Positions 34,335 through 51,205 of a stretch of DNA of 64,000 bases are shown here, in pieces (position 1 is the first letter of the stretch; each line of letters starts with the position of its first letter). The notes below the pieces were generated by a model. The model had not been told where the DNA came from, did not search any database, and worked only from the letters and a program-made list of their open reading frames with translations. The DNA lies in NCBI GenBank assembly GCA_963736005.1, contig CAVTNB010000001.1:1991379-2055378 (forward strand), written 5' to 3'. The position numbers and the translations under genes were made by a program. Origin of the DNA: an uncultured Pseudomonadota bacterium. Lineage in GTDB: Bacteria; Vulcanimicrobiota; Vulcanimicrobiia; Eremiobacterales; Eremiobacteraceae.

Positions 34335-34391
34335 GGGGCGATTGGAAAATCGCCCCACACAGGAGTGTAGCAGCGGACCTTTAGGTCCGCT
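34330..34391 (+). repeat. family B plus family A REP
   Basis: Copies at 34330-34356 and 34366-34391. Confidence 0.9.
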
Positions 34392-34403
34392 TGCTCACTT
34401 TCT

Positions 34404-35570
34404 ATGACACCATTCCCGCCCTTCATACAGCACATCGTTGATTCGGTCTACCCCATACCGCGTCAACTGCTGGCAGACCAGCTCGCCAGCATCACGCATC
34501 CTTTGTATTTCGTGTACGTCGCAATCGAACTGGCCTTTTTATTGTGGTTTTACTTCAGCGGTGCGTCAGCCAGTTTGCGAACGGCGCTCGAAACAACGAT
34601 AAAGAACCCGTTGCTTTGCGCAGTTGCCTTCATTGCAATCGGCTTCGCCGGGCTTTCGATTTTGATGCTGCCCATGAGTTTTTACGGCAGCTTTGTCCTC
34701 TCGCACCAATTCGGGTTGTCTGCTGAAACGGTCGGGCGGTGGCTGCGCGATTGGTTCGTGAGTCTCGTCTTGAGCGCGGCAGTTGCTTCAATTGCCGGCG
34801 CTTTGCTTCTCCGCGCCATGGCTCGGTGGCGAGCGTGGACCCTCATCGCAGCCGCAGGCGCGGCCGCGCTGCTCGTGTTTGGCAACGCTATCTTCCCCGT
34901 GTTTATCGCGCCCTTGTTCAACACGTTTACGCCGCTGCCAGCGACGCCGCTGACGCGCGCCATTCTCCACCTTGCGTCATCGCAAGGCATCAACGCGTCG
35001 GTTGTCTACGAATACAACATGAGCATCCAAACCCGTGAGGCAAACGCCTACGTCTCGGGGCTTGGAAGAACAGAACGCATTGCGGTGGGCGATACGCTGC
35101 TCGAGAGCATGCCACCCGATGAGGTGCTGTACGTCATGGCGCACGAGATGGGGCATTACAAACTGGGGCACCTGTGGCTGGGCACGTTTGAAGCATGGGT
35201 CTTTGTACTCGCTGCTCTTGCTCTCGTCGCAACGCTCGGGGCAAGACTTGCGCGCCGGAACCGGGGTCGCTCGCGCGATCTGGCAGACCCGGCAGCCGCG
35301 CCGCTGCTTGCAGCGCTCGTCTTAAGCTTCGAAATCGTCACCATGCCTGTTGCCAATGCCCTCTCCCGAAACATCGAACATGCGGCTGACGTCTTTGCCG
35401 GCGAGCATACAAACCTCGGTGACGCAGGGGTAAGAGCCCAGGCGCGCCTTGCCTCCATCGACCTCTCCCCGCTGCATCCGAGCCCGCTTGTGGTCTGGTA
35501 TTTTTACACGCATCCACCGAGCGACCAGCGGATTATGGATGCAGCCCGGCTCGCCCATCTCGTTCGATAG
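34404..35570 (+). CDS. M48 (Ste24-like) membrane metalloprotease
   Basis: NAYVSGLG, AHEMGH, EHAADVF, THPPSDQRI. Confidence 0.93.
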   Translation: MTPFPPFIQHIVDSVYPIPRQLLADQLASITHPLYFVYVAIELAFLLWFYFSGASASLRTALETTIKNPLLCAVAFIAIGFAGLSILMLPMSFYGSFVLSHQFGLSAETVGRWLRDWFVSLVLSAAVASIAGALLLRAMARWRAWTLIAAAGAAALLVFGNAIFPVFIAPLFNTFTPLPATPLTRAILHLASSQGINASVVYEYNMSIQTREANAYVSGLGRTERIAVGDTLLESMPPDEVLYVMAHEMGHYKLGHLWLGTFEAWVFVLAALALVATLGARLARRNRGRSRDLADPAAAPLLAALVLSFEIVTMPVANALSRNIEHAADVFAGEHTNLGDAGVRAQARLASIDLSPLHPSPLVVWYFYTHPPSDQRIMDAARLAHLVR

Positions 35571-35582
35571 GGCGGGCCACGC

Positions 35583-35627
35583 TTGACGCGTGCGCTCCAT
35601 GGTGCTAGGATTTTCCACATAATAGAA
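35583..35627 (+). promoter_or_regulatory. promoter with probable IclR-family operator
   Basis: TTGACG-N17-TAGGAT (extended -10), then TTCCA-N5-TAGAA imperfect palindrome at 35613-35627. Confidence 0.6.
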
Positions 35628-35648
35628 GACCTCTCGGAAGTAGGCCCC

Positions 35649-36473
35649 ATGGTGAAAGCGAGCGACCAAAGCGCAGCCGAAGGCGCGCGACGCGAGCGCG
35701 GCGGCGTGCAGTCCGTCGAGCGCACGCTGGATATTCTCGAATCGCTCGTCGAGCTCGGCTCGGAAGTCGGGCTGGTGGAAATCAGCCAGGCAGTATCGCT
35801 CCCTCTTGCCACCGTTCACCGGCTCCTGGGGACCCTGATCCAGCGTGGATACGTCAAACAAAATCGGCAGAACCGAAAATATTCACTCGGCTTCCGCGCG
35901 CTGCAAATGGGCAGCGACATGCGCCAACGTTTCAGCTTGCGACTGGAAGCGCGTCCATTCTTGCAGCGGTTGATGCAAAGCTGCGGCGAAAGTGCAAATC
36001 TCGCGGTCCTCGATGATGGTGAAGTCGTCTACATCGACCAAGCACAGTCGTCGCGCATCCTGAGAATGTTCACCCAGATAGGCAACCGCTTGCCTGCGCA
36101 CTCCACCGGGAGCGGCAAAGTGATGTTGGCGTTTGCGCCGCCTGAAGTGATGGACGGCATCTTGCGCCGCTATGCGCTCACCGAGCGAACGCCGCACACC
36201 ATCGTTGATGTGGACGAGTTCAGGAGCGAGCTCGAGCGCATTCGGCGGCAAGGTTACGCAATCGACGACCAAGAGCATGAAGAAGGCGTCCGCTGCATCG
36301 CTGCTCCGGTTCGCGACGAGTCCGGTCAAGTCGTTGCAAGCTTGTCGATCTCAGGCCCCGTGACGCGCTTGAGCGATCGAGCCGTCTCGGACATCACTCC
36401 CGAAGTGGTCGACTGCGGAATAAAACTCTCATCGCGACTAGGATACAAGCCAGAACCAGCTCCCGTCTCTTAA
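35649..36473 (+). CDS. IclR family transcriptional regulator
   Basis: VQSVERTLDILE, ATVHRLL, PAHSTGSGK, GYAIDDQEHEEGVRCIAAP. Confidence 0.95.
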   Translation: MVKASDQSAAEGARRERGGVQSVERTLDILESLVELGSEVGLVEISQAVSLPLATVHRLLGTLIQRGYVKQNRQNRKYSLGFRALQMGSDMRQRFSLRLEARPFLQRLMQSCGESANLAVLDDGEVVYIDQAQSSRILRMFTQIGNRLPAHSTGSGKVMLAFAPPEVMDGILRRYALTERTPHTIVDVDEFRSELERIRRQGYAIDDQEHEEGVRCIAAPVRDESGQVVASLSISGPVTRLSDRAVSDITPEVVDCGIKLSSRLGYKPEPAPVS

Positions 36474-36559
36474 AAAACTCACAACTCGCGTGCGCCCCAT
36501 CACTACCGTTTGGCACACGGTTGGCGGCCGGCGCTTTCGGGCATATAATGCTCTTAGCG

Positions 36560-38002
36560 ATGAAAGGAATGCGACCAGCCGGTGGTGGTCTTGCGCCCGA
36601 CCGCTCGGCCGCGGCTGTGGTTCACTATTTCACGTCCGACCCTTTGCGCATGGCGCGCGCCGACCGCATCGTCCGTGATCTCGCGCTTCCACTCTCCACC
36701 GTCCAGCCAATTCTCGATCACCTCGTGGCGCTCGGCGTCCTCGATCGCCGGAGTCCCAGCCCCACTGAACCGCCGGTCTATCTCCCCCAGGTCGCCGATC
36801 AATTTCTTGATGTGATCGAACGATTGTCAAACTATTTCAACCAGCAAATCGAAGATATCGCCGTGTCGCCGGAGCGGGCACAGCTCGCTGTCGGAGAAGC
36901 GCCCGCCGAAGGAGATCGCGTCCATCCCCTGCGCGCACGCGTCGCCAGCCTCGAGGCCGCAAACGCGCTGATGCAGCGCAAGAATCTCGAGCTCTCGTTT
37001 CTGTATGAGGCGAGTCTCCTGCTCGCAAGTTCGATCGATCTCTCGACCTTGGGCCAGACAGTCGTCAACGCCGTGGTGAACGCATCCAGATTCAAGATTC
37101 AAAAGTGCTTCGTTGCGCTGGTGGACGGCGATGCCTTTATCTTTCACGCAGGCCACGGCGTGGAGCCGTTGGATGCCGAGCAGTTCATGTTCAGGTATCG
37201 GGCACGTCTGCGACAAGGCGTCGAGCGCGGCGAGGTGATCGTCGCGAGTGTGGAAACGCTGGCGAATGAACCCAACGGCGATGCCGGCGCGTGCGTTATT
37301 ATCCCCATGGTTTCACGGCCCCCGGAGCGCGGCTACGGCTGCATCGTCATTACAGACATGGAAGAGGGCGGGCTCACCGGAGACGATTTGCGCACCCTCA
37401 CCCAGCTGGCCGAACTCGCCGGGCGCAGTCTCGCCAATGCGGCGCTGTACAGTCGAAGTGTTGCCCTTGGCATGACCGACGAGCTGACTGGCGTCCTGAA
37501 CCGGCGCTATCTCGATCGCCGCTTGGCCGACGAGGTCAAGCGTTCGCATCGCACCGGCGGCAACCTCTCCGTTATCATCATGGATCTTGATCTGTTCAAG
37601 GCGGTCAACGATCGACTTGGTCATCTCGAAGGCGACCGCATGCTCCAGGCGGTGGCGCGCACGATTTCGGCTTCGGTGCGCGACATCGACGTCGTCACCC
37701 GCTTCGGTGGGGAGGAGTTTGCGATCATCTTACCTGGCGCCACGGAGCGTGACGCGTTCATGGTGGCCGAACGCGTGCGCGCTGCGGTGGAGATGATGGG
37801 CTATGAAAGCGCGGGAGGATTGGAGATACCGATCACCATCTCCGCGGGCGTCGCGCAATTCAAGGACAGCATTCACACGCCTGCGCAACTTATCGCCGTC
37901 GCGGATCGTCGCTTGCTGGACGCCAAGCGCGGCGGCCGCAATCGCACGGTCGCTTCATCTGCGAGCGCTGTCGCGGTGGACCTCCAAGCTCGTTCGATGT
38001 AG
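36560..38002 (+). CDS. GAF-GGDEF diguanylate cyclase with wHTH-like N-terminus
   Basis: DELTGVLNRR, RDID I-site, RFGGEEF. Start uncertain. Confidence 0.9.
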   Translation: MKGMRPAGGGLAPDRSAAAVVHYFTSDPLRMARADRIVRDLALPLSTVQPILDHLVALGVLDRRSPSPTEPPVYLPQVADQFLDVIERLSNYFNQQIEDIAVSPERAQLAVGEAPAEGDRVHPLRARVASLEAANALMQRKNLELSFLYEASLLLASSIDLSTLGQTVVNAVVNASRFKIQKCFVALVDGDAFIFHAGHGVEPLDAEQFMFRYRARLRQGVERGEVIVASVETLANEPNGDAGACVIIPMVSRPPERGYGCIVITDMEEGGLTGDDLRTLTQLAELAGRSLANAALYSRSVALGMTDELTGVLNRRYLDRRLADEVKRSHRTGGNLSVIIMDLDLFKAVNDRLGHLEGDRMLQAVARTISASVRDIDVVTRFGGEEFAIILPGATERDAFMVAERVRAAVEMMGYESAGGLEIPITISAGVAQFKDSIHTPAQLIAVADRRLLDAKRGGRNRTVASSASAVAVDLQARSM

Positions 38003-38108
38003 CGGGCGAATTTATTCCTAAGTGTAGGGGGCGATTGGAAAATCGCCCCACGTCGTCGCGCGAATTCATTCGCGCGTATTGGTGTAGCGGGCGACTGTCA
38101 AGTCGCCC
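37998..38108 (+). repeat. mixed REP cluster (D/C hybrid, B, C, D)
   Basis: Four palindromic units at 37998, 38023, 38052, 38083. Confidence 0.88.
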
Positions 38109-38111
38109 ATG

Positions 38112-38696
38112 TTAGAGATGGGAAGCGACTTCCTTACCAATGATTTCCATTTGGAAGCGGGTGATGGCAGGCCGCTTTAAAGATCGATCCATGATTTGAA
38201 TCCGCACAATAGTCCCGTGACGCCGGAGGAGTAAAGAACTCGCGTGTGCGTCCGGCACCCACACGGCTCGCTCCCCAAGGTCGCCGACGACAACCGGAGG
38301 CTGGTCACTGATGATGGTTGATGGCTTCGCAAGCTGCCCATCATAAAATGCGAACTGCGGATCGCCCTGCTTCCTGACATCGATTGTGAGATCCATCGCT
38401 TGAGGTGACTCCGCTTGACCGACTGTCGTCCATTCGCACAGGGTTGGCGCGATTGGGTTTTGATCCGGAGAGATCGCCATGGGTTGATTCAATACGGCAG
38501 AGACGGTCTTGTCACTGAGCAGTCCGCAAGGGCGGCCGGATAGGGCGGTGGTGTCCGCTGTCTGCGCGACCGATGGGGATGAGGTCGCGGCATCAGTGCC
38601 CGTTTTGCTCCCGATGTCCTGTTTGCTTGTGCAGGCGAAAAGAACGCACGCACAGGTGAAGCAAACTGTCAGGGCTCTCAATTGGTGACCCTTCAT
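38112..38696 (-). CDS. lipoprotein, DUF3558-like
   Basis: Lipobox LFAC; PCGLLSDKTVSAVL, LCEW, LGERAVW. Confidence 0.7.
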   Translation of the reverse strand: MKGHQLRALTVCFTCACVLFACTSKQDIGSKTGTDAATSSPSVAQTADTTALSGRPCGLLSDKTVSAVLNQPMAISPDQNPIAPTLCEWTTVGQAESPQAMDLTIDVRKQGDPQFAFYDGQLAKPSTIISDQPPVVVGDLGERAVWVPDAHASSLLLRRHGTIVRIQIMDRSLKRPAITRFQMEIIGKEVASHL

Positions 38697-38712
38697 TCTT
38701 GCACTCCGATCT

Positions 38713-40119
38713 TCACGCACGGATAAGTTCTACCCGTCGGTTGAGCGCCCGACCCTCGAGCGTGGCGTTGGTCGCCTTTGGTCGTGACGCACCAAAGCCT
38801 CCGGTGGTCAAACGGGCCGAAGCGATGTGATATCTCGTAACGAGGGCCGCCTTTACTGATTCAGCTCGGCGACGTGAGAGCGTGAGGTTGTAGGCAGCAG
38901 TTCCTATTGAGTCCGTATGTCCATCGATCTCAAGTCGCCATTGGGGATGCTGCGAGAGCAGTTGCGCAATGGCGGCAAGCGTGGGTTCCGACTGTGGCCG
39001 AATCGTTGCCTGGTTGAAGTCGAAGTAGATCCCATAAACGTCGGCTGGTTTTTTGGCTTCGAGTGTAGAGACGAGGGCATTGGTCATCTGCGGACCCGCT
39101 TGCGAGATCTTAATGACTTGCATTTCCTCAGCTTCGATCGTGAAACGCAGCACGAGCGGGTTGTTCGGATCATTAAGTATCCACATGTCGTAACAGCCGA
39201 AGCGGATGGCCGGGGGAGTTTGCAGACACTCTGGTTGACCGCCATGGAGGTGGACTGCGGCAACCGCAACTGGTTTGTCATCAAGAATGATAGGGACGCC
39301 GCCTTGGCCGACATTCTGAACTTGCGACGAATCCGCCATCCCCATGCAAAACGTCGACGGGTAGAAGGTCATCTTTGCGGTCTTGTGCGAGCTTATCGTA
39401 GCGAGCACGTCACGCGACACCTCGAGTGTGGTCGTGCCCGGATGATCGCCCTGCACTGGCGTTTCATCCTTGGCAAAAAACTTCGGAGGCATTCCGTTGC
39501 AAAAGTCCGGAAAGAATTGCTGCGAGTGGTCGAGGTCCTCATTGCGAGTCTTTCGCAAGGTATCGATCGTGAAATACTTGGTCTTTGAATCGAAGGAAAA
39601 AGTCATGCTGCCCGAGTCAGTTGACACGACGCGCTTGATGGATTCCAAATCTCCATCAGGACTCTCGCCCGCGGTCACTATCGTCAGACCGACTTGCAAC
39701 GGAATTGACGTCTGCACTCCAGAGCCGCTCGGCGTCCACTCGGGCTGCGGTGTCGGCGCTCCAGCACTGCTTCCACTCGCTGACGGTGGACTCGAAAGCG
39801 CCTGCAATACTTGCCCGATTTGCCCCACCACGGCGCCCCCGGCTGCATTCCCGGTTGACGCTGCCGCGCTCGGGGACTCAGACTCCGCTGCTGGCGTCTG
39901 ACTCTCGGTACTGACAGATGGCTCGGTCGAGCCGACCGGGCTCGTTAATACAAGCGGAGTTTGCGTTGCAACCGCGATCGCCGATGGACCGGCGATGGTG
40001 GGCGTTGGTGTCGCCGATGTTTGTTGGTTGCCTCCATGTGCGCACGAAGCGCACATGATGGATGCAACCGCCGCAGCGAGTGCCCACGTCCCATATGCTC
40101 GACGTACGGATCTATTCAT
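38713..40119 (-). CDS. OmpA-family lipoprotein with Pro/Ser/Thr linker and unknown middle domain
   Basis: Lipobox CASC; C-terminal IYFDFNQA, IDGHTDSIG, NLTLSRRRAESV, GRALNRRVEL. Confidence 0.9.
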   Translation of the reverse strand: MNRSVRRAYGTWALAAAVASIMCASCAHGGNQQTSATPTPTIAGPSAIAVATQTPLVLTSPVGSTEPSVSTESQTPAAESESPSAAASTGNAAGGAVVGQIGQVLQALSSPPSASGSSAGAPTPQPEWTPSGSGVQTSIPLQVGLTIVTAGESPDGDLESIKRVVSTDSGSMTFSFDSKTKYFTIDTLRKTRNEDLDHSQQFFPDFCNGMPPKFFAKDETPVQGDHPGTTTLEVSRDVLATISSHKTAKMTFYPSTFCMGMADSSQVQNVGQGGVPIILDDKPVAVAAVHLHGGQPECLQTPPAIRFGCYDMWILNDPNNPLVLRFTIEAEEMQVIKISQAGPQMTNALVSTLEAKKPADVYGIYFDFNQATIRPQSEPTLAAIAQLLSQHPQWRLEIDGHTDSIGTAAYNLTLSRRRAESVKAALVTRYHIASARLTTGGFGASRPKATNATLEGRALNRRVELIRA

Positions 40120-40151
40120 TGGCTTGATCACGATTGCCCCGGTCCCCGACG

Positions 40152-41711
40152 TTATCCATCGCCCGCAGTCGCTATGTCTTTGCAACGCTGAACCGGCGGA
40201 TCGATCATGTGCCAGATTTTGAGTTTCTTGACCCCGGAATTCGGCTCCGCAAAGGTGATGCCCAGCATCTTCGCCTCCGCCCCATACTTGTAAGCAAAGA
40301 CAAGCGTCGTGATCGTGCACGGGACAACGAGCGGCTCAGCGTTGGATTCCTTGGAGAGTCCAGTCGACACAATGAATTCGACATAGACGCCGGCTTCATT
40401 GTCCAGTAGCTTCTTCACGCCACTTTTGACGAAGGTTTTTGCTTTGCCGAGGAACGTGCTAAACTTGCTTTGTTGACCGGAGCCATCGATTGCGCTTTCG
40501 CCTTCGGATTTTTGGCTTGCGGATTCGCCGTTCTCTTCTTCCTCGATCTCAAAGTTTGTCTTGAGTTCTATCTTCGGTATCGCCATCGCCACAACGATGC
40601 CAAACGAACCAATCGAAATATTGGCGTGCGTGTCAGGATTGATGGATGCCTCACCATGAACGTCCTCCTTGCCGTTGGCGCTTTGGCCGCTCGCGGAAAA
40701 GCCCGCATCGCCCGTATAGTTTATGCTGAAACTACCGTGCGCTAATTCTCCTTTGCCTGAAAAACCCGGTTTAATAATTGCAGCAGTCGAGAACTCGAGA
40801 GCAAACGGAATCTCACCGATCAGGAATGGAAATTTTGCTTTGGGAAGCCCTAATTTGATCCCGCTTTCTGCGGGGTCTAGCGTCCCAAGGCCGGGCGTGA
40901 ACTTTTGTGCAGTCCACTCGAAGTCGACGTGGCCATTCAGCCCTGACGCTGAGTATTCCATATCATTGACTTGACCATTGGCGAACTGCATGTTTGCCAG
41001 TGAGGAAAAGTTCGCGATATTACCCGTGCCTCGGACCTCCAGATCCATCCCAGCAATGTTCTCGCGCTTCAGCGTCAGGGTCATATTCATCGCATTCGGG
41101 CTTGGCGCTAGAACAGCACAAATGTGCCAGTTGCCGATTGAGATGATAGGGGTGACCGCATTTGAGCCGTTTCCCCCGCACTCACCCTCTCCCTGAGCCA
41201 TGGCAGGTTCGCCGTGACTCCGCAACCACTCGCCCACCGGGTCGTACGCAACTGTTTCCTCACCCATGGTCCCAAAATTCACGGGAATGTTCCAGGCGAT
41301 GTGCCCGTTTTGAATGGCGTCGGTGAGCGCCGCTTGACCGACCGTTACAAAAACGACATTGTTGCGCCGCTCGACGGCGGTGACTTTTCGCAGGCCGATC
41401 TTCCTGAAGAGCACCGTTTTGCCGGGCGCGAGCGCTTGGATCTGCGGCGATGAGTCGTCGAAGACAAGGATCGATCCATCATCGCTGACAGCAAGAAGTG
41501 AATCGGCAACGGTCTTTTCATCGACAAAGACCGTACTTGGTTTGAACGTCACCTGGTAGACTGAACCGGGAGCATTTGTGATATCGGTAACCGCTGCCGG
41601 CGTCGATGCCTCACCGCTCGAAGGTGAAGGATGCCCAGCGCACGAGACAACCGTCAACGACCCAAGAGCCACGATGGACGCTAGCAGCAGCTTTGAAAGC
41701 AATCGAAACAT
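40152..41711 (-). CDS. hypothetical beta-rich lipoprotein
   Basis: 519 aa ORF, lipobox VVSC; first gene of a three-gene operon. Confidence 0.75.
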   Translation of the reverse strand: MFRLLSKLLLASIVALGSLTVVSCAGHPSPSSGEASTPAAVTDITNAPGSVYQVTFKPSTVFVDEKTVADSLLAVSDDGSILVFDDSSPQIQALAPGKTVLFRKIGLRKVTAVERRNNVVFVTVGQAALTDAIQNGHIAWNIPVNFGTMGEETVAYDPVGEWLRSHGEPAMAQGEGECGGNGSNAVTPIISIGNWHICAVLAPSPNAMNMTLTLKRENIAGMDLEVRGTGNIANFSSLANMQFANGQVNDMEYSASGLNGHVDFEWTAQKFTPGLGTLDPAESGIKLGLPKAKFPFLIGEIPFALEFSTAAIIKPGFSGKGELAHGSFSINYTGDAGFSASGQSANGKEDVHGEASINPDTHANISIGSFGIVVAMAIPKIELKTNFEIEEEENGESASQKSEGESAIDGSGQQSKFSTFLGKAKTFVKSGVKKLLDNEAGVYVEFIVSTGLSKESNAEPLVVPCTITTLVFAYKYGAEAKMLGITFAEPNSGVKKLKIWHMIDPPVQRCKDIATAGDG

Positions 41712-41747
41712 AGTCGGCCTTTCAACTCAGGATCGAGTCTTTGCCCC

Positions 41748-41779
41748 ATTGTACAACGCGCCCGTCCATGGGGCGTCCA
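41748..41779 (-). promoter_or_regulatory. SARP-type promoter 1
   Basis: TGGACG-CCCCA-TGGACG-N9-TACAAT. Confidence 0.8.
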
Positions 41780-41821
41780 CCAAGATGGGCGGCAAGCGGA
41801 CCTAAGGATTCGGCCTTTACG

Positions 41822-42436
41822 TTAGATGCGTGTGAGGACGGTGCGCGCGAGCTCTTCCGAAGTCGCAAGACTGTTCGATGAGTGAGCAGCAGTGACGTCC
41901 AATCCGAAGACGATCCCCTGTTTGAGCACGGTCAACTGACCGTTTTTCCAAGCGGCTTTGTCGCCCAACCCGGTGATGTACTCTACATCTTCGGCCGTTC
42001 CGACTGCGCTATTGAACGAGCTCATTCCGGGGATGTAACCAGTCACGGCTTGTACTATCGATAAACACTGCAGCCCCTTGCAACCGGACTTGGCCGCCTG
42101 TGCCGCATCAACGGTCAATAGTACCTGTTGCGTTGGACCTGAAGTGTGCACAACGCTGGCCCACAGGCATTCGTTTGGAGTCGGGCGGGTTGGCGTGCGC
42201 ACCTGATCGATCCCTACGCCGAGGGCGGACGCAACATCCGATTGCCCCAAAAGCGCGCAAGGATCGACCCCTGGGCGTTTCGTGGCGACAGGCGAGACTT
42301 GCGGTGAAGATTGCGGGGAGGGCGCAGCTGACGGCGCGGACGTTGGTGGCGCCTGGGATGCAAAAGCCCTAGGCCCACTTACACAAAGGAGCATCACAAA
42401 CAAAAGAGCGGCGTGAAAGAAGCGGTTCGTCATCAT
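41822..42436 (-). CDS. secreted protein, DUF3558-like
   Basis: Signal peptide ending AFA; DPCALLGQSDVASALG, ECLW, LGDKAAW; resembles 38112-38696. Confidence 0.72.
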   Translation of the reverse strand: MMTNRFFHAALLFVMLLCVSGPRAFASQAPPTSAPSAAPSPQSSPQVSPVATKRPGVDPCALLGQSDVASALGVGIDQVRTPTRPTPNECLWASVVHTSGPTQQVLLTVDAAQAAKSGCKGLQCLSIVQAVTGYIPGMSSFNSAVGTAEDVEYITGLGDKAAWKNGQLTVLKQGIVFGLDVTAAHSSNSLATSEELARTVLTRI

Positions 42437-42448
42437 CGTCTGCCTCAT

Positions 42449-42480
42449 AGCATACGGCCTAGGCGTCCAAGTAGCGTCCA
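42449..42480 (-). promoter_or_regulatory. SARP-type promoter 2
   Basis: TGGACG-CTACT-TGGACG-N9-TATGCT. Confidence 0.8.
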
Positions 42481-42502
42481 GCGAAATCAAGCTTACCAAG
42501 CC

Positions 42503-45500
42503 ATGGCGATCAGTCAGGCTCAGCTCGTGTTCCGCATCTTTCTCTTTGGCCAGCCGCATTTTGCTCTTGGCGATGCGCCATTCAAGTTTGGCGCTCCCCC
42601 GAAGGCACTGCCATTGCTCGCTTATCTGCTCCTCCATGGTCGACCTGTTGCGCGCGAGAAGCTTGCCTTTTGCCTTTGGCCGGATGAAAGTGAAGAGAAC
42701 GCGCTCTCAAACTTGCGCCGCCACCTCAACCACTTGAAAAAGGCGCTCCCAGCTCTTGGGGGCGCCCCTTGGGTTCTCTCAACCGACGATACCGTCGAAT
42801 GGAATTCCGCCTCGGATGCTTGGATCGACGTCGCTGAATTTATCCGCCTCTCCGATGCCCAAGAGAGTCGGGCGCAAGCCGTCAACCTCTACGCTGGGGA
42901 TTTACTGGAGAATCTCTACGATGATTGGATTCTGTCGTGGCGAGAACGCCTTCGCGCAAAGTATCTCGAGACGCTGAACGCGCTCGTCCTCGAACAACGT
43001 AGCCGGCGCAACTTTGCCGCCGCTGGCAAGTACCTTCACAGCCTCCTCACCATCGATCCCTGGCGCGAGGACGCCGTGCGCCATTTGATGGCAGTCAATT
43101 ACGAGCGGGGCGACCGCGCGGGCGCGCTTCGTACCTACGCTGATTTCGCGCGCCGGCTGAGTGACGAGATGGGTGTCGAACCGATGCCTGAAACCGTGGC
43201 AGTACGCGACGGTATTCTCCGCAACGCTCCGCTCGGTGCTGCCCGCGAAGGACTTGCGGTCGCGGAGCGAACGCCGTCCGGCACGCTCGCCGACCCAGCG
43301 TTGCCCTTTGTCGGGCGCGACCATGAAATGGAACAATTGCGCGCGATCTGGACCCGAACCGCGCGCAACTTCGGCACGACCGTGTTCATCGGCGGTGAGG
43401 CCGGGATCGGCAAGACTCGACTCACCGAGGAGCTGCGGCTCATCGCCGAAAGCGAGGGCGCGCGGGTTATTGTTGGCACGACATCAAGCCCCGAGGCATA
43501 TCCGTATCAGGCGTTCGCCGAAGCCCTCCGATCGGCTCACGCGCTCGTCATGTCGCTCGATTTGCCGACCGCCCATCTCGCGTCTCTCGCAAGGATCGTT
43601 CCAACCTTTGGCGCCGGACCTGCAGAAACAGCAAGCCCGCCTTTGCTTGACCCCGATCGCGACCACAGCAAACTCTTGGGCGCACTCGAACGAGGTCTTA
43701 CGAGTCTCGCTCGAGCCCGACCTGTGCTTTTGGTGTTGGAAGACCTCCATTGGGCCGGCCCAGCGACCATTGCCGCACTCGAATTTGTTGCGCACCGAAT
43801 CGCCACTTCATCGTTGCTTATCGTGGCAACGTATCGCAGCGATGAACTAATGCCCCCGCATGCGCTGTTGAGCCTTCGCCGTGCCCTACTCGAACAACAT
43901 CGGGCTACCGCCGTGGGAGTCGGACAATTGTCAAGCGCCGCAGTGAGCGAACTCGTGCACCAAGTCCCCGAACTGTCCGCTCGCGCAGGCGACGACATCG
44001 CATCAACGCTCTACACGGAAAGCGAAGGCAATCCACTACTCTTGCTGCACATCGTCCGAACCATCGTTGAATCGCCGCTCGGGCTTGGCGCCCATTCTCC
44101 TTCGGGACCCGCGGAGATCCGTGCGACCCTTACGGAACGTATCGAACGCCTGCCCGCCGCGGCTCGAACCCTTGCGGAAATCGCGGCTGTCGGCGGTCGA
44201 TCGTTCGATGTCGATGTCGTGCGCGGTGTCAGCGGTTGGGAGGAGGCCGATCTCTTCGATGCGCTCGGGGTGCTGCTCGATCGCCACTTCGTGAAAGAGT
44301 TGTCGTCCGGCCAGCGTTTCTCATATGGTTTTACTCACCATCTCGTTCAAGCAACCTTGTATGACGGTGTGCCCGCCGAAGCGCGAGTTCAGCGCCATCG
44401 GCGCTTCGGGCGCGTCATGGAGGAAAGCCAAGCCGACCCCAACCGCGCGCTTGCAGGCGATATCGCTCGCCACTACGACCTCGGAGGGGAAGGCGGTAAG
44501 GCGGCGCGATGGTACCTTGTAGCCGGTCAACAGGCAGCATCGGTGCATGCGCTCGACGACGCACTGCGTCACCTCACGCGCGGAGTCGACATTGCTGATG
44601 ATGCGAGCATGCGCGTGGCGTTGCACTTGCAGCGCGAAAATGTACAGGCGAGGCGCGGCGACCGTGAGGGACAACGAGCCGACCTGGAGACGCTTAGCCA
44701 ACTTGCTGCGGCAACTTCAAACGAGGACCTTGTCGGCGAAGTGTTGTTCCGCAAGTCGCGGCTCGCAAACGTTCTCGGTGAGCGCGAGGAAGAGTCGCGA
44801 TTCGTGGATGACTTGCAAGCGCACGCTCAGACAACGGGCAACTTGCGCCAGGTTGCGCAAGCACAATATGCCGCGGCATCTCTCGCTGCCCTGCTTGATC
44901 AGTATGATGACGCGCGCACGTCCGCGCTCAATGCACTCGACATCTGGAAACGCTTGGGTTGCATTCCCGAGCAAGTCGAATGCTTATGCCTGCTCGCCCA
45001 TATCGCGCTGCATCGGGGGGCCATCGCAGATTCGGAGCCGTTTATCCAACAAGCGCGGGCGCTCGCGGAAAGCGTCGGCAGACCCGAACTCGCTGCCTTT
45101 GTCTTTTGGACTGCGGCCGGTTCTGCTCTCGCCCGGCATCAATTTACCGCCTGCATCGACCTCTGCAAGAACGCAGCACAGCTCTATCGTGCGGTCGGTG
45201 ATCGCGAGGGCGAGGCAGATGCCGCCGCGCGTGAGGCGAGCGCGCTCTCGAGATTGGAACGGTATGAGGATGCCCTAAGCGCCAACGAATCCGCAGCACG
45301 TATCTTCGAAGCAATCGGGAAACGCCAGGGGCTGGCCACCACGCAGGTTAACGCGGCCGTCATTTCGCTGCGGTTGGGCGATCTTGACAAAGCATGCGAG
45401 CTGTTGGAGTCCGCCGGCGGCTATTTCTCGGCGATGCTTGACGTTCGGGGCGAGGTGGTTTGCGAATTGAACACCGCTTTCGCCCGCTTAGTGGGTGGCG

Positions 45501-46024
45501 ACGCAACCGAGGCAAAGAGCGGCGCGCAGCGCGTGCTGAATAAGACGCGTGCCATCGGCCTGCGGGCGATGGAGGCTCAAGCCCTTGCCACGCTTGGCGC
45601 AGCAGAGCGGGAGCTCGGCGAGATCGATGCCGCGATCGACCACATGCACGAAGGACTCGCAATCGAGCGCGCGCTCGACCGAACATCCGACATCCCTAAC
45701 GATCTCGCAGACTTGACGCTTGCATACTTGCGCAAGGGCGATCTCGCAGCTGCGAAGCTCACAACTGATGAGCTCTTGCGCACGGCCGAAATGTCGGCAG
45801 CCGGCGCGCTGTGGCCGCATTGTCTGTACTGGGTCGCTGCGCGCACTTTTCATAAGGCTAGAGATTCCAAGCGAGCGGCTGCGTTGCTGGAGCGCGCATC
45901 CACGCTTTACCGAGCTGCGCTCGATTCGATTGCGGAATCTGCCACGAGGGCGAGGTTCGCCAAACTCTCGTTCAATCGCGAAATCGAAACTGCGGTGACC
46001 CGCGGCCGCTGGCCCAAAGACTAA
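42503..46024 (+). CDS. SARP-like wHTH-BTAD / STAND ATPase / TPR transcriptional regulator
   Basis: LLAYLLL..REKLAFCLWPD, BTAD (LYAGDLL, DPWREDAVRHLM), Walker A GEAGIGKT, Walker B LLVLEDLHWA, GNPL, long TPR-like C-terminus. Confidence 0.92.
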   Translation: MAISQAQLVFRIFLFGQPHFALGDAPFKFGAPPKALPLLAYLLLHGRPVAREKLAFCLWPDESEENALSNLRRHLNHLKKALPALGGAPWVLSTDDTVEWNSASDAWIDVAEFIRLSDAQESRAQAVNLYAGDLLENLYDDWILSWRERLRAKYLETLNALVLEQRSRRNFAAAGKYLHSLLTIDPWREDAVRHLMAVNYERGDRAGALRTYADFARRLSDEMGVEPMPETVAVRDGILRNAPLGAAREGLAVAERTPSGTLADPALPFVGRDHEMEQLRAIWTRTARNFGTTVFIGGEAGIGKTRLTEELRLIAESEGARVIVGTTSSPEAYPYQAFAEALRSAHALVMSLDLPTAHLASLARIVPTFGAGPAETASPPLLDPDRDHSKLLGALERGLTSLARARPVLLVLEDLHWAGPATIAALEFVAHRIATSSLLIVATYRSDELMPPHALLSLRRALLEQHRATAVGVGQLSSAAVSELVHQVPELSARAGDDIASTLYTESEGNPLLLLHIVRTIVESPLGLGAHSPSGPAEIRATLTERIERLPAAARTLAEIAAVGGRSFDVDVVRGVSGWEEADLFDALGVLLDRHFVKELSSGQRFSYGFTHHLVQATLYDGVPAEARVQRHRRFGRVMEESQADPNRALAGDIARHYDLGGEGGKAARWYLVAGQQAASVHALDDALRHLTRGVDIADDASMRVALHLQRENVQARRGDREGQRADLETLSQLAAATSNEDLVGEVLFRKSRLANVLGEREEESRFVDDLQAHAQTTGNLRQVAQAQYAAASLAALLDQYDDARTSALNALDIWKRLGCIPEQVECLCLLAHIALHRGAIADSEPFIQQARALAESVGRPELAAFVFWTAAGSALARHQFTACIDLCKNAAQLYRAVGDREGEADAAAREASALSRLERYEDALSANESAARIFEAIGKRQGLATTQVNAAVISLRLGDLDKACELLESAGGYFSAMLDVRGEVVCELNTAFARLVGGDATEAKSGAQRVLNKTRAIGLRAMEAQALATLGAAERELGEIDAAIDHMHEGLAIERALDRTSDIPNDLADLTLAYLRKGDLAAAKLTTDELLRTAEMSAAGALWPHCLYWVAARTFHKARDSKRAAALLERASTLYRAALDSIAESATRARFAKLSFNREIETAVTRGRWPKD

Positions 46025-46045
46025 CCTCGAACTCTTGTGATCGCC

Positions 46046-46077
46046 TGGACGCCCGATGGACGGCGGCTTGATACCAT
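46046..46077 (+). promoter_or_regulatory. SARP-type promoter 3
   Basis: TGGACG-CCCGA-TGGACG-N9-TACCAT. Confidence 0.8.
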
Positions 46078-46112
46078 GGTGGCGCACATGAAGCTACTGT
46101 GGGGAAGTTACG

Positions 46113-46322
46113 GTGGGTGAGGATCGCGCGAACTCTCGCCAGGAGCATGCGTTCGTCGTTCGAGTGTGGCGCGAAGAAGGCGGCCTTTCGAGTTCCTGGC
46201 GGGGATCTGTGGAACATGTCGGCACCCGTCACCGCAGATACTTTGGGGACTTGGCCGAAGTTCTCCATTTCATCCGTCAGCACGCTGCAGCCCAGGCGGC
46301 ACAGAAGGATCAACAAAGGTAG
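46113..46322 (+). CDS. small hypothetical protein (69 aa)
   Basis: AFVVRVWRE...WRGSVEHV..RRYFGDLAEVLHFI; protein-like pattern, preceded by promoter 3. Confidence 0.72.
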   Translation: MGEDRANSRQEHAFVVRVWREEGGLSSSWRGSVEHVGTRHRRYFGDLAEVLHFIRQHAAAQAAQKDQQR

Positions 46323-46451
46323 CAGCGGACCATGTAGCAGCGGACCTTTAGGTCCGCTCGACGCCCATGTAGCAGCGGACCTTTAGGTCCGCTCGCAGTG
46401 TAGTCGATTTATTCGCGCGTAAGTATGTAGCGGGCGACGGTCAAGTCGCCC
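46318..46451 (+). repeat. mixed REP cluster (A half, A, A, truncated C, D)
   Basis: GTAG-headed units at 46319, 46333, 46368, 46398, 46426. Confidence 0.9.
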
Positions 46452-46560
46452 TTCGCTCATTACGCTCCTCCAGCTGTCTTCGACCGACGGCGATCATGAG
46501 GCGCTTGTGATGCCCCTTCGCGACCTCTTGAAGCTCGTCGCCAATTCGCGCCGGAGCTTT

Positions 46561-46589
46561 GACCCCCCGCAAACCGGGGGTTGGCTACA
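46561..46589 (-). repeat. possible fifth GTAG-hairpin type (or terminator) at the RES stop
   Basis: TGTAG-CCAA-CCCCCG-GTTTG-CGGGGG; single copy in window. Confidence 0.4.
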
Positions 46590-47151
46590 TAATTTGCCGG
46601 CCCACGATTTTGGCCGCTACAGCAACTGCCGGGTTCCCCACGGTTAACGGAACCACCTCAACCACATGCAAAGCTGTGCGCGTCCAAAGACCAATACTGG
46701 ACCAACGCCCTTCATAATACGACCACCAACGCACCCCCACCCAACCGGTCGTCCTCGCTGCCTTGAATATTTTCAACGCCCAAGATTGCGTGATGGCGTA
46801 ATCGCGGGTGATGACCGTTGACGGGCGTAGCTGATGCGCAAGCAACTGACGTGGGTCATCCAGATCGCAGATCAGCGCAAGACCAGGCAAGGCATATCTG
46901 GCGAGCGCTCGTATGCTGCCAGGCAGAAGCGGAGTTCCGCGCATGGTGGCTGTTGTCCAGACCGCTGATGGAATCGGAGCCAGTGATTCAGCAACCGCAG
47001 CTTCAGGCTCGCTCGACACGTAGAGGACGTCGTAGTGCTCGGGGTTGTCGAGGCGCCCAGCTCCTTGTGGTGAAATAAAAAGAGCGCCCCCGGGTTTGTG
47101 TGCGGGAACGCCTTCGAGATAACTAAAGACCCGGTAGAGGCTCACGGGCAT
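46585..47151 (-). CDS. RES domain toxin
   Basis: GRLD, LYVSSEPEAAVAE, GVRWWS giving the R, E, S residues. Confidence 0.88.
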   Translation of the reverse strand: MPVSLYRVFSYLEGVPAHKPGGALFISPQGAGRLDNPEHYDVLYVSSEPEAAVAESLAPIPSAVWTTATMRGTPLLPGSIRALARYALPGLALICDLDDPRQLLAHQLRPSTVITRDYAITQSWALKIFKAARTTGWVGVRWWSYYEGRWSSIGLWTRTALHVVEVVPLTVGNPAVAVAAKIVGRQIM

Positions 47152-47156
47152 CCGCG

Positions 47157-47585
47157 CTACACAAATGCCCCGGCGGCGATTTGGTCAAGCGCAGCAATCA
47201 CCGGCGCGGCGCCTCGGGTGACCAGCACGTCGATGGGCCGTGCGCCGTGCAAGAACGGTTGCGGAAAAGTGAGAAACGCGCCTGCTTCATCAGGGTGAAA
47301 CACTTGCAAAGCCCTGCTCAGAACGTAGTCGAGGTCCGAAACTCGACGAGCGCTCTCTGCCCCGATCGGTTCACCGTGCAGCCAACGCGATGCTTGAGAG
47401 TTGGAAACACCGAGAATCTGTGCCGTCTGATTGTTCCCGAGCAATTTGACGAGATGGCGCAGTGCTGCTTGAACGGGGCGGTAGTCAATCAGCGGGCTAA
47501 CACCCCGGACCTTAATCTGCTGGATCGCTGTACGCCAAGATCTGGTCGGAGATCGCCGCCGAGCCTGTGATTGTCTCGATTTCAT
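47157..47585 (-). CDS. Xre/MbcA/ParS-type antitoxin
   Basis: HTH TAQILGVSNSQASRW; C-terminal FLTFPQPFLHGARPIDVL...GAFV. Confidence 0.88.
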   Translation of the reverse strand: MKSRQSQARRRSPTRSWRTAIQQIKVRGVSPLIDYRPVQAALRHLVKLLGNNQTAQILGVSNSQASRWLHGEPIGAESARRVSDLDYVLSRALQVFHPDEAGAFLTFPQPFLHGARPIDVLVTRGAAPVIAALDQIAAGAFV

Positions 47586-47591
47586 GCACAC

Positions 47592-47621
47592 ATGTTACCA
47601 CAACAGAAACTGTTGCGTCAA
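47592..47621 (-). promoter_or_regulatory. RES-Xre promoter with operator in spacer
   Basis: TTGACG-N18-TAACAT; CAACAG-N3-CTGTTG palindrome 47601-47615; ATG 6 nt after -10. Confidence 0.7.
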
Positions 47622-47694
47622 TCTTCAAGGTCTCTGAACGTGCCAATTCGCGAACTTGGCCGAATTCTGAAGAGTCTACTCGCGCGTGCCCATT

Positions 47695-47787
47695 TAGCAG
47701 CAGATCTGTAGCGGGCGACTGTCAAGTCGCCCATATAGCAGCGGACCATGTAGCGGACCTTTGTAGTAGCGGACCTTTAGGTCCGCT
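47695..47787 (+). repeat. mixed REP cluster (A halves, D, A)
   Basis: D at 47707-47732, A at 47762-47787, partial A units between. Confidence 0.88.
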
Positions 47788-47806
47788 CGAAGAACCCGCG
47801 CCTCGA

Positions 47807-48289
47807 ATGACCACCACCATTCGTCTGGCTCGCAATGACGACTTGGGCTTCATCGATGCGCTTGGCTTGCAGACGGCGCTCGACACCGTGTCACCCGTGC
47901 GCGGGCTGACCCGTAGTGCCGCGGAGCACGCCTATCAGCGGCTCGTCTCTTTTTGTCGCGAACGCGCGGGCACCGTGACCTTTGTGGGTGAGAGGGATAA
48001 CCAGCGGGCGGGATTCCTCATGCTTGTCACGGACCTACCTGACGACATCTCGCAAAGACCGCAGGCGTTCATCGCGTATGTCGCCGTGGCCGAGGAGCAT
48101 CGCGATCACGGCGTTGGACGTGCTTTGATCAAAGCAGCCATTGCAGAGGGTCTGCGCCGCAGGCTGCCGCACGTCAGTCTCATGGTGAGCGCTGAGAACC
48201 CGACCGCGCGATTGCTCTACGAGAGCGAGGGATTTTTGCCCGAGCGTCTTCTCATGACGAAGGGCCTCGACCAGGGATCAGCTCCATGA
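47807..48289 (+). CDS. GNAT family N-acetyltransferase
   Basis: IAYVAVAEEHRDHGVGRALI, NPTARLLYESEGF. Confidence 0.9.
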   Translation: MTTTIRLARNDDLGFIDALGLQTALDTVSPVRGLTRSAAEHAYQRLVSFCRERAGTVTFVGERDNQRAGFLMLVTDLPDDISQRPQAFIAYVAVAEEHRDHGVGRALIKAAIAEGLRRRLPHVSLMVSAENPTARLLYESEGFLPERLLMTKGLDQGSAP

Positions 48290-49395
48290 GCGACCGTACG
48301 GCAGCTCCTCCCGGCTGGCGGGGCATTGTGCGCCCGGCAGTGATCATTCTCGCGCTCATGCTGTGCGTGTTCGTGGCGCTTCGCATCCCAATGACCATCG
48401 AGGTCTTCATCGTCGCAACGCTCATCGCGTACGGCGTGAATCCGATCATCCGTTTTCTGTCAAAAAGGATGCCAAGGCTCGTTGCCATCGTTATTGTCTA
48501 TGCGCTGTTCTTGCTGATCCTGCTCATCGGAGCGGCCATCGTCGTGCCCACGGTTATCGAACAAATCCAAACGCTCATTGCCAGTAGCAGCGACTATCTC
48601 AGCGCGACGCAGACCTTCATTAATAACGAACAGGCGTGGATCAATAAGCACTTCGGTGCGCACATGCTTCCGCCGCAGTTCAACAATCTTGAGGACGCGA
48701 TGCTCAATCAGCTCTCTAACGGCATGCAGGCCGGGCTGACAAAGGTCGGAGGCTTCGTCGTCTCGGTGGCCAGTGCGGTGGTCATCGGCGTTACCGCCAT
48801 TATTCTCTCGTATTATCTCTTGGTCAACGCCTACTCGATTCGGCAAACGTTCTTGGATCTTTTCCCGCAGCGGTCAGAGCGCAAAGCAGAGCGGTTCGTG
48901 CATGAAGTGCAGCGAGTTTTCGGCGGCTTTGTCGGCGGGCAGATCATCCTGTGCGCGTTTTGCGGCATCTTTACGTTCTTGGGACTTGAGATCATCCAAT
49001 CACAATATGCGCTGCTGCTCGCGGTCCTCACCGGCCTCTTGTATGCCATTCCCTATTTGGGCGTGTTTGCCGCAATTCTCATCGGGGTATTGCTCGGGCT
49101 GCTGCAATCGTGGGAGGTGGCAATCTGGACGGCCGCCATCATGTTCGTGGTGACGAAGATTGCTGATACGTTCCTTGTTCCAAAGGTAATGTCCGAAAGC
49201 GTCGGCGTGTCGCCAATGGGCATAATCTTCGCTGCGTTTGCCGGAGGGGAGTTATTCGGCTTATGGGGTTTGCTGCTCGCAATCCCCGCCGCCGCGCTTT
49301 TCAAGGCCCTATGGGTGGTGTGGATTTACCCGTGGCTGACCGGCAAAGAATTGCCACCAACTCTTCCTGAAAAAAATGTAGCAGCGGATCTGTAG
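48286..49395 (+). CDS. AI-2E family transporter
   Basis: IAYGVNP, IPYLG, LVPKVMSESVGVSP, FGLWGLLLAIP. Confidence 0.92.
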   Translation: MSDRTAAPPGWRGIVRPAVIILALMLCVFVALRIPMTIEVFIVATLIAYGVNPIIRFLSKRMPRLVAIVIVYALFLLILLIGAAIVVPTVIEQIQTLIASSSDYLSATQTFINNEQAWINKHFGAHMLPPQFNNLEDAMLNQLSNGMQAGLTKVGGFVVSVASAVVIGVTAIILSYYLLVNAYSIRQTFLDLFPQRSERKAERFVHEVQRVFGGFVGGQIILCAFCGIFTFLGLEIIQSQYALLLAVLTGLLYAIPYLGVFAAILIGVLLGLLQSWEVAIWTAAIMFVVTKIADTFLVPKVMSESVGVSPMGIIFAAFAGGELFGLWGLLLAIPAAALFKALWVVWIYPWLTGKELPPTLPEKNVAADL

Positions 49396-49447
49396 CGGGC
49401 GACTGTCAAGTCGCCCAAACAGTCACGAATAAATTCGTGACACTACA
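49377..49447. repeat. REP cluster between convergent genes (A half, D, inverted C)
   Basis: Both flanking stop codons are the TAG of a TGTAG tag. Confidence 0.88.
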
Positions 49448-51134
49448 TAGCGTCTGGGGCTGAGACGCCGATCAACCCAAGGGCCGAAGCCAACACGGTC
49501 TTCGTGGCCAGGCAGAGCGACAAGCGCGCGCTCGTCAGCGAGTCGTCGTCCCCGAGCACCACGCACTCTGTGTAGAACGAGTGAAAATCAGTTGCGACGT
49601 CTTGCGTGTACTCAGCGACGCGATGGGGCGCTCGCCCTTTCGCCGCACTCGCGACCGTGCGCCCGAAGTCGGCAAGGCGGCGGATAAGGGCGATTTCAGC
49701 GTGATGGACCAGCTTCGCGACATCGAGACCCTTGCGAGCCCGCTCTAAAACCGCCAGTCGGCTCTCAGCTGCTTTGCGCAGGATCGACGAAATTCGTGCG
49801 TGACCGTATTGCACGTAGTACACGGGGTTCTTCGTCGATTGCTCGACTGCCAGTTCGAGATCGAACACCAAGTGCGACTCCGGCGCGCGGTTGATAAAGA
49901 AGTATCGCGCGGCGTCGACGCCCACTTGATCCATCACCTCCCGCAACGTGACCAAATCTCCAGCGCGCTTGCTCATGGACACGGCCTGACCGCCCCGCTT
50001 GAAGGTGACGTGTTGCGCTAAGAGCACTTCAAGTGCACCTGGATGACCCAAGGCGGCCACAAGCGCGCAAAGCCGCGCGATGTACCCATGATGGTCTGGT
50101 CCAAGAATATCGATGAGATAGCGGTTGCCCCGGCGCAACTTGTCGGCGTGATACGCGGCATCAGCGGCGAGATACGTGGGCCGCCCATCACTGCGCACGA
50201 GCACGCGGTCTTTATCATCTCCAAAATCGGTCGTACGCAGCCAGAGCGCGCCGTCCTGCTCGTAGGTATGGCCGCCGGCCCGCAAATCATCGATGGCGGC
50301 AGCAATCGCGCCCGACTCGTGCAGCGTCGCTTCGGAGGTCCAGTGGTCGAAATGAACGCGAAAGCGATCGAGATCGGCGCGCTGTTGCTCGACGATAAGA
50401 TCTCTGGCGAATCGGCCGAGCGCGCGACGCCGTTCCTCGGACGGCGCTTGCAACCACCTCTCGCCATCGCGTGCAGCGAGCGTCCGGGCAAGATCGATCA
50501 GATAGTCCCCGGCGTATCCGTCCTCTGGGAGAGGCGTTTCTTTACCGAGCAGCGTCGCATAGCGCGCGTACAGCGAGTCTGCGAGGTTATCCAGTTGAGC
50601 GCCCGCATCGTTGATATAGGTCTCAGATGAAGTGGTTGCGCCGGCGAAGCGAAACATCGCGACGAGCGAAGCGCCAAGCGCGCTCGATCGCCCCTGAACA
50701 ACGACTAGCGGGCCGGTCGGGTTCGCTGAGACAAACTCGATGTTGACGGGTCCAAGCGATCGCAGCTCCTCAGACTTACCATAGTCGGCGTCGAGGCGAA
50801 GCACGTCGCAAATGACATCGCCCCAGAACGTCGGCGCCATGGTGAGGTTCACAAACCCAGGCTTGACGGCTTCGATGCGGTTGACGTCGGGAAGGCTACT
50901 GACGCCATCCCCGGCGAGCGCTTGTGCGATCTCGAGAGGATTGCGCTTCCACGCCTTTCCCGCCGCCAGAGCCACCGATGTGGCGAAATCACCGTGCGAA
51001 ATGTCACGGGTTGGGGACAGCGCGATCGGCAGCGATGCTCCGTTGGTTGCGTTCAGAGTCGTGGCAACGCGGGCGAGACGAGTTTCAAGCTCGCTTTGGA
51101 CCGCTGCCAGCACTTCATGGTAGCGTTGGCTCAT
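49443..51134 (-). CDS. argS: arginine--tRNA ligase
   Basis: HGDFAT, EFVSANPTGPL, YINDAG, GDDKDRV, MSKRAG, YYVQYGHARI; HIGH motif reads VVVQ. Confidence 0.96.
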   Translation of the reverse strand: MSQRYHEVLAAVQSELETRLARVATTLNATNGASLPIALSPTRDISHGDFATSVALAAGKAWKRNPLEIAQALAGDGVSSLPDVNRIEAVKPGFVNLTMAPTFWGDVICDVLRLDADYGKSEELRSLGPVNIEFVSANPTGPLVVVQGRSSALGASLVAMFRFAGATTSSETYINDAGAQLDNLADSLYARYATLLGKETPLPEDGYAGDYLIDLARTLAARDGERWLQAPSEERRRALGRFARDLIVEQQRADLDRFRVHFDHWTSEATLHESGAIAAAIDDLRAGGHTYEQDGALWLRTTDFGDDKDRVLVRSDGRPTYLAADAAYHADKLRRGNRYLIDILGPDHHGYIARLCALVAALGHPGALEVLLAQHVTFKRGGQAVSMSKRAGDLVTLREVMDQVGVDAARYFFINRAPESHLVFDLELAVEQSTKNPVYYVQYGHARISSILRKAAESRLAVLERARKGLDVAKLVHHAEIALIRRLADFGRTVASAAKGRAPHRVAEYTQDVATDFHSFYTECVVLGDDDSLTSARLSLCLATKTVLASALGLIGVSAPDAM

Positions 51135-51205
51135 CGTTGGCGTATGTTGGCTTGTCTCACCGCTTATCCATCGTCGCCCGCGCAATTCGCGTGATATTCT
51201 CGTTC

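Follow-up and report, generated by a model that had tools for sequence, protein, structure and literature searches.

Within 64,000 nucleotides of genomic DNA from an uncultured bacterium of the Eremiobacteraceae (GenBank assembly GCA_963736005.1, contig CAVTNB010000001.1, positions 1,991,379 to 2,055,378; hereafter the window), we analysed a cassette at positions 38112-46322 in which a 1173-aa protein that joins a module of the SARP kind (for Streptomyces antibiotic regulatory protein) to STAND and TPR domains is accompanied by three copies of one promoter-like box, TGGACG-N5-TGGACG-N9-TAnnnT. Our results make it highly probable that this protein acts as a one-component activator of the large SARP type and reads the adjacent boxes. 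The domain order, the intact Walker motifs, the positions of the boxes, and the fact that box and recognition helix are conserved and vary together are observed directly, and on them the proposed function is based. The design itself is known from Streptomyces; the lineages, the targets, the code that pairs helix with box, and a small partner protein are new. Across the loci compared, the gene of this small protein is the most constant predicted target, and the surface proteins vary by locus. The first-pass annotation of this DNA had overlooked that the conserved partner is the small gene instead of the surface proteins, and that the genome contains a paralogous cassette with another box.

To our knowledge, SARPs have been studied almost solely as activators of antibiotic production in actinomycetes. 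One survey deems SARP hits outside Actinobacteria atypical (PMC7040171), and a 2026 preprint regards it as unknown what AfsR-like regulators target and, for Actinomycetota only, places 58% of these regulators outside clusters (bioRxiv 10.64898/2026.09.02.748808). A literature search over titles and the beginnings of abstracts, with most subscription journals not covered, returned no description of the present system and no SARP-binding small regulator. The first-pass statement that no such system had been described was overstated, since the AfsR-afsS design and the heptamer doublets of SanG and PolR are known. Regulators with predictable operators are of wider use: the pairing of helix and box would let regulons be read in uncultured lineages, the helix/box types offer natural orthogonal activator-promoter pairs, and the small protein is a candidate SARP-binding regulator.

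The regulator and its three boxes

The regulator is encoded on the plus strand at 42503-46024. Its first-pass reading as a wHTH-BTAD-STAND-TPR protein is upheld: the winged helix-turn-helix (wHTH) and BTAD part spans about residues 8-245, the NTPase has Walker A at 298-305, Walker B at 410-416 and F-x-H at 610-612, and TPR-like helices begin at about 620. BTAD (72 bits against a cut-off of 22), AAA_16 and TPR_12 exceeded their Pfam cut-offs, the Trans_reg_C match was weak (E 0.014, below cut-off), and no membrane segment was found. The label "NLR-like", also given at first pass, fits only loosely, as the NTPase scores as AAA_16 with no NB-ARC or NACHT match in the Pfam scan and has no Asp where the HD motif requires one. 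Among full-length relatives, the Walker A Lys is present in 76/76, the Walker B Asp in 75/76 and His612 in 73/76, the residue following this His being His in 57/76 and Asp in 4/76. Sequence similarity to AfsR extends over residues 28-243 (E 8e-12) and that to EmbR over residues 14-248 (E 1.4e-8), and in the structural model (predicted local distance difference test, pLDDT, 90) the SARP part resembles the AfsR SARP domain (8k60_J) with a template-modelling (TM) score of 0.73. Moreover, the AfsR residues R87, R94 and K95, which contact the DNA backbone, align to R, K and K. The score against the AfsR orthologue profile (NCBIfam NF053617) was 83 bits, compared with a cut-off of 1430, and the best NCBIfam stretch was the TOMM kinase/cyclase ATPase region (TIGR03903). 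We conclude that the regulator probably works like AfsR, yet is no AfsR orthologue.

A scan confirmed all three boxes. Box 1 (41748-41779, minus strand, ending in TACAAT) has the start codon at 41711 lying 36 nt downstream and is kept in the related genome G002; box 2 (42449-42480, minus, TATGCT) lies 12 nt ahead of 42436 and, on its other side, 22 nt upstream of where the divergent regulator starts; box 3 (46046-46077, plus, TACCAT) begins 21 nt past the regulator stop and lies 35 nt ahead of the small gene. As proposed earlier, they precede each unit flanking the regulator, namely 42436-41822, the run 41711-38112 (with gaps of about 33 and 17 nt) and 46113-46322; the regulator itself is faced by none of them at this locus. 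The placement of box 3 between regulator and small gene is the same in the Chloroflexota locus L002, where the regulator is 33% identical and regulator, box and small gene follow one another as here.

In the window, the full motif with at most one mismatch gave 3 matches (shuffle mean 0.34; 3 reached in 0/100 shuffles). The genome of 2,844,058 bases holds exactly three exact TGGACG-N5-TGGACG pairs, all within the cassette and all followed by N9-TAnnnT, where 0.003 full motifs are expected, and a genome scan with up to two mismatches over the full motif added no further sites. What stands out is that the sites cluster and keep a constant distance to the -10, the bare hexamer pair being unexceptional. 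A genome-wide scan for any hexamer-N5-same hexamer-N9-TAnnnT was unenriched (16, against 8-15 at neighbouring spacings); hence the boxes are local and represent no general promoter class. A sigma-70 consensus scan found one site (2.4 in shuffles) and none at the boxes. GTAG palindromes of the repetitive extragenic palindromic (REP) kind flank the cassette at 37997-38108 and 46319-46451; as each core has 74-130 copies genome-wide, we rejected them as cassette ends.

If TAnnnT is the -10 element at -12 to -7, one hexamer would occupy -38 to -33 and the other -27 to -22, placing direct repeats of 11-bp period over the predicted -35 region. This is the register of the AfsR afs box, in line with the SARP-type geometry recognised at first pass. 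AfsR-afsS of Streptomyces coelicolor (PDB 8hvr, 8k60) shares the SARP-NTPase-TPR order and likewise has two repeats of 11 bp over -35, in an identical register. AfsR differs in having an NB-ARC instead of an AAA_16-type NTPase and F/Y-HD instead of F-x-H-H, and the present system uses another hexamer, has exported proteins in place of antibiotic genes as its predicted targets, and resides in a host outside Actinomycetota. The gene afsS is small and adjoins afsR. EmbR of Mycobacterium tuberculosis controls envelope, not antibiotic, genes; it also has a SARP module (PDB 2fez), but carries an FHA domain where the present regulator has STAND-TPR. The best match to the whole model was the TPR-sensor STAND protein 6mfv (E 3.5e-14; whole-chain TM 0.26/0.41); this protein and MalT-type switches are among the closest known systems, and the match includes no SARP output module. 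The best-known AfsR target is the afsS promoter. There, -40 to -19 is taken up by two 11-bp repeats, in which R92 of AfsR reads positions -38/-27 and T88 positions -36/-25 (PMC10936776). The SARP-LAL regulators SanG, PolR and PimR fuse a SARP module to an LAL/cyclase-associated ATPase, a relation to which the AAA_16 and TIGR03903 matches of the present regulator may point; the accessible parts of the papers on them describe heptamer doublets overlapping -35 for SanG and PolR, locate all three regulators in biosynthetic clusters and name no small partner (PMC5930380, PMC10972967), and the operator consensus given there is the heptamer CGGCAAG (PMC5930380), unlike TGGACG here.

Helix, box and small protein in relatives

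The full motif occurred in 10/61 relatives (16 sites including the three here; reversed control 0) and in 10/201 genomes from the class to which the Chloroflexota genome G061 belongs (14 sites; control 2), where 7/14 sites lie at most 1.5 kb from a regulator C-terminus. Close relatives of the N-terminal part of the regulator were found in 100/151 genomes of its own class (a count that includes G008 and G011) and in 18/201 genomes of the G061 class. We then compared 89 loci (1.08 Mb), comprising 60 around top-ranked matches among the 150 listed for the class, 17 loci from the G061 class, 3 motif hits and 9 earlier loci. Exact hexamer repeats with a spacer of 5 numbered 16, 35, 52, 37 and 19 for N7 to N11, and 3-7 and 12-16 with spacers of 4 and 6, respectively.

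For the comparison of helix and box, 80 of the 89 loci had one regulator of at least 38% over the N-terminal part, and 9 were dropped. Loci with Asn before L-R-R of the helix (N loci) had the GACG box in 23/43 cases and the CACG box in 0/43, while loci with Glu at this position (E loci) had the CACG box in 21/29 and the GACG box in 0/29; control geometries gave 0.25-0.5 in total. The Asn/Glu and His/Tyr of the helix vary together. Moreover, both box types coexist in six genomes (G000, the present one, G006, G015, G020, G024 and G289), each adjoining its own regulator. This co-variation supports the earlier proposal that the adjacent regulator is the likely reader of the boxes. Further variants follow the same line: K, V or Y at the position equivalent to T88 is accompanied by boxes of the GTAACG or GCAACG type or the like, spaced N9 or N10 (L154, L155, L195, L197, L202, L203, L212, L217, L218, L223, L225 and L226), which put A at the position that T88 reads, and 13/33 loci examined for such boxes gave no clear box.

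The paralogous cassette of the present genome (L027; C1:579600-592100) has a regulator 38% identical to ours, a homologue of the small gene and three SGCACG boxes, and its cargo includes two multicopper-oxidase genes together with DUF8402 and OmpA homologues. As all three TGGACG and all three SGCACG sites lie inside their own cassettes, the first-pass description of the system as self-contained holds for this genome; it fails in relatives, where boxed genes without a nearby regulator occur. In the class, SGCACG motifs were found in 39/151 genomes (79 sites against 9 controls), with a regulator match in 36/39. An island with several SGCACG boxes was seen at L229 (G053 C1:1671298-1676447) and at L234; it occurs in the genomes G053, which lacks a close regulator, and G271, which carries one elsewhere.

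The small cytoplasmic protein (46113-46322, plus strand; 69 aa) is predicted to form three strands followed by a helix (model pLDDT 85) and belongs to a conserved SARP-associated family. A single-sequence search returned only 2 near copies; a profile search was needed, and a four-row profile retrieved 3011 representatives at E<=0.001. The protein has no Pfam or NCBIfam match, 120 aligned members have no Pfam family in common, and its atlas clusters are named only "hypothetical protein". Fold searches of the model gave nothing at E<=0.001 (best Z 4.9), with weak MBD and dsRBD-like rows. The small gene stands beside 58/80 regulators, in any of the positions after, before, divergent or convergent, and a near-perfect box lies upstream of 38/64 copies, with a degenerate box at many others. 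In loci chosen by the small gene alone (40 among 80 matches listed), a SARP gene was present in 33/40; since some of these SARP neighbours are only 310-370 aa long, it is the SARP module that is the common neighbour of the small gene. The family occurs in 48/201 Chloroflexota genomes, and in the Chloroflexota genome G367 we noted 17 matches to it. Several proteins (P0036, P0138, P0147, P0154-P0156, P0158 and P0159) carry the small domain as a fusion with a globin, rhodanese or EF-hand domain. The small gene is missing, within the examined stretch, from 10 boxed loci. In the 96% complete genome G265, regulator and box occur with no member of the family, so the small protein is dispensable in some cases.

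Small protein and regulator descend together. Their pairwise identities, with the SARP domain taken for the regulator, correlate with rho 0.63 (56 pairs; kin are not independent), and the small-protein tree tracks the N/E split with 3 changes, compared with 17 when shuffled. A predicted complex of the small protein with regulator residues 1-245, the SARP domain being the sole part of the regulator tried, scored 0.40, the best of three controls 0.00; contacts agreed to at least 77% between runs, and the partner pLDDT was at least 71. The mark applied to this score is reached by 116/157 solved complexes and 2/215 mismatches, with 18/157 solved complexes and both mismatches lying within it at no more than 0.60. 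The model thus weakly suggests that the small protein binds the SARP domain.

Proposed mechanism and competing explanations

By analogy with AfsR, the NTPase and TPR parts would hold the regulator inhibited, and a cytoplasmic signal received at the TPR part, together with ATP binding, would release it. Two SARP modules would then settle on the hexamers, which are a helical turn from each other, and recruit RNA polymerase with the housekeeping sigma factor to promoters that lack a usable -35 element. The output at this locus would be four exported proteins, acting as swappable cargo, and the small protein. Where box, small gene and regulator stand in line (L079-L081, L083-L085 and L133), positive autoregulation may be expected. 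The signal may be a small cytoplasmic ligand reporting envelope or surface conditions, although this is a guess. The small protein, always co-induced and perhaps binding the activator, would most simply be a negative-feedback element, likewise a guess; that it attaches to the SARP module and so acts back on the activator, in the simplest case by inhibiting it, appears to us a plausible idea falling somewhat short of an even chance. We are more tentative still in speculating that it founds a very large family, as yet without a name, whose members are dedicated to binding SARPs and regulating them by feedback (as anti-activators or tuners), in which the fusions serve as signal inputs, and which, together with SARP-STAND sensors and the helix-to-box code, would make up a portable switch before interchangeable surface cargo in non-actinomycetes.

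Several observations weigh against an activator that reads its adjacent boxes. The exact box at N9 is missing from 20/43 N loci and 8/29 E loci, and no clear box was found at the loci where the SARP neighbouring the small gene is short (L191, L193, L196, L198, L199 and L201). The CACG group is a single branch (one change, support 82 in a quick tree), so the switch from G to C is one independent event and a Fisher test of the N/E segregation overstates its significance. The base-reading T88 and R92 of AfsR align to R and H, and therefore the base contacts of AfsR are not simply transferable. The common descent of small protein and regulator means that co-variation alone cannot tell which of them reads the DNA. 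Furthermore, G053 (96% complete) carries five SGCACG boxes and has neither a close regulator nor a small gene, one SGCACG site (G345) lies within a reading frame and another (G309) has no obvious target, and bare TGGACG pairs are as common at other spacings, with three each at spacers 6, 8 and 9 in the genome (0.61 expected).

The last point would favour taking the boxes for chance or repeat-element remnants, as would the REP-like palindromes on both sides of the cassette. The palindromes are distinct from the box and spread over the genome, the full motif is far rarer by expectation than observed, and across phyla the spacer letters change while hexamers and TAnnnT stay. We regard this explanation, whose probability is close to nil, as refuted by the conservation of the motif in relatives and in the G061 class and by the peak at spacer 5 and N9. 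A reading in which the small three-strand/one-helix protein itself recognises the boxes, or serves as an indispensable co-activator, with the large protein acting upstream, is improbable, if the least so of the alternatives. It draws on the resemblance of the small protein to small nucleic-acid-binding folds, on its tree following the N/E split and on the boxes upstream of its gene copies; against it stand the boxed loci and the G265 genome without a family member, the lack of an outstanding fold match, and a box geometry that is that of SARP dimers.

Proteins of the OmpR family bind 11-bp repeats too. Such a response regulator, or an alternative sigma factor, could read the repeats genome-wide, and the relatives in which boxes lie away from any regulator, including G053, or precede exported proteins with no regulator in the examined stretch, speak for this. 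Such a factor would not explain why, in six genomes, two box types each adjoin their own regulator clade, nor why both kinds of site in the present genome are confined to their own cassettes, and we consider it very unlikely. Hardly more probable is that the regulator binds the boxes and represses by covering the -35 region, which they overlap. Box 2 does sit where the divergent promoter of the regulator is expected, and self-repression may coexist with activation; the same box position, however, activates in the case of AfsR, the BTAD domain is retained, and the sigma-70 consensus scan found no promoter with its -35 element at the boxes, so there would be little basal activity to repress. Hence, activation by the adjacent SARP-STAND regulator remains our preferred explanation.

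Exported cargo and neighbouring genes

The first-pass set of targets, four exported proteins and one small cytoplasmic protein, is supported by domain and signal calls, with signal peptides and lipoboxes assigned on visual inspection and a rough hydrophobicity rule and not by a trained predictor. Behind box 1, the first gene (40152-41711, minus; 519 aa) encodes a predicted DUF8402/DUF8403 lipoprotein (precomputed PF28444/PF28445 and atlas neighbours; Cys24), the second (38713-40119, minus; 468 aa) a predicted lipoprotein with a C-terminal OmpA-like peptidoglycan-binding domain (Pfam OmpA at 365-461, E 4e-22; Cys26), and the last (38112-38696, minus; 194 aa) a DUF3558-like predicted lipoprotein (E 2.9e-6, below the Pfam cut-off; lipobox-like Cys22). 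Box 2 faces a DUF3558-like protein (41822-42436, minus; 204 aa; E 2.8e-6, below cut-off) that is predicted to be secreted from its signal-peptide-like N-terminus.

According to automatic calls, several of them visibly wrong, 84 boxes with a called downstream frame preceded the small gene in 10 cases, the regulator in 5 and other frames in 69, and 49/69 of these other frames looked exported, compared with 81/309 background frames. The cargo families differ between loci (multicopper oxidases, OmpA, beta-helix, FG-GAP and C25, besides many without a family). The pair of DUF8402 and OmpA lipoproteins occurs three times in the present genome, the third (C1:1017056-1021254) with neither box nor regulator, and therefore the cargo is modular. 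No enzymes of biosynthetic clusters were seen among the neighbours in 33000-52000 or among 49 scanned cargo proteins, no cluster-prediction tool being used. Regulators of the CACG type often drive multicopper oxidases (L099, L106, L118, L123 and L127), which may indicate a theme related to metals or redox in this clade.

Directly behind the small gene, a RES toxin and an Xre/MbcA/ParS antitoxin form a pair (46585-47591 of the window, minus strand) that is absent at the same place in L001, where an acetyltransferase gene directly follows. On the other side, at 36521-38002 (plus strand), a GAF-GGDEF protein with a weak N-terminal HTH is encoded behind an IclR regulator.

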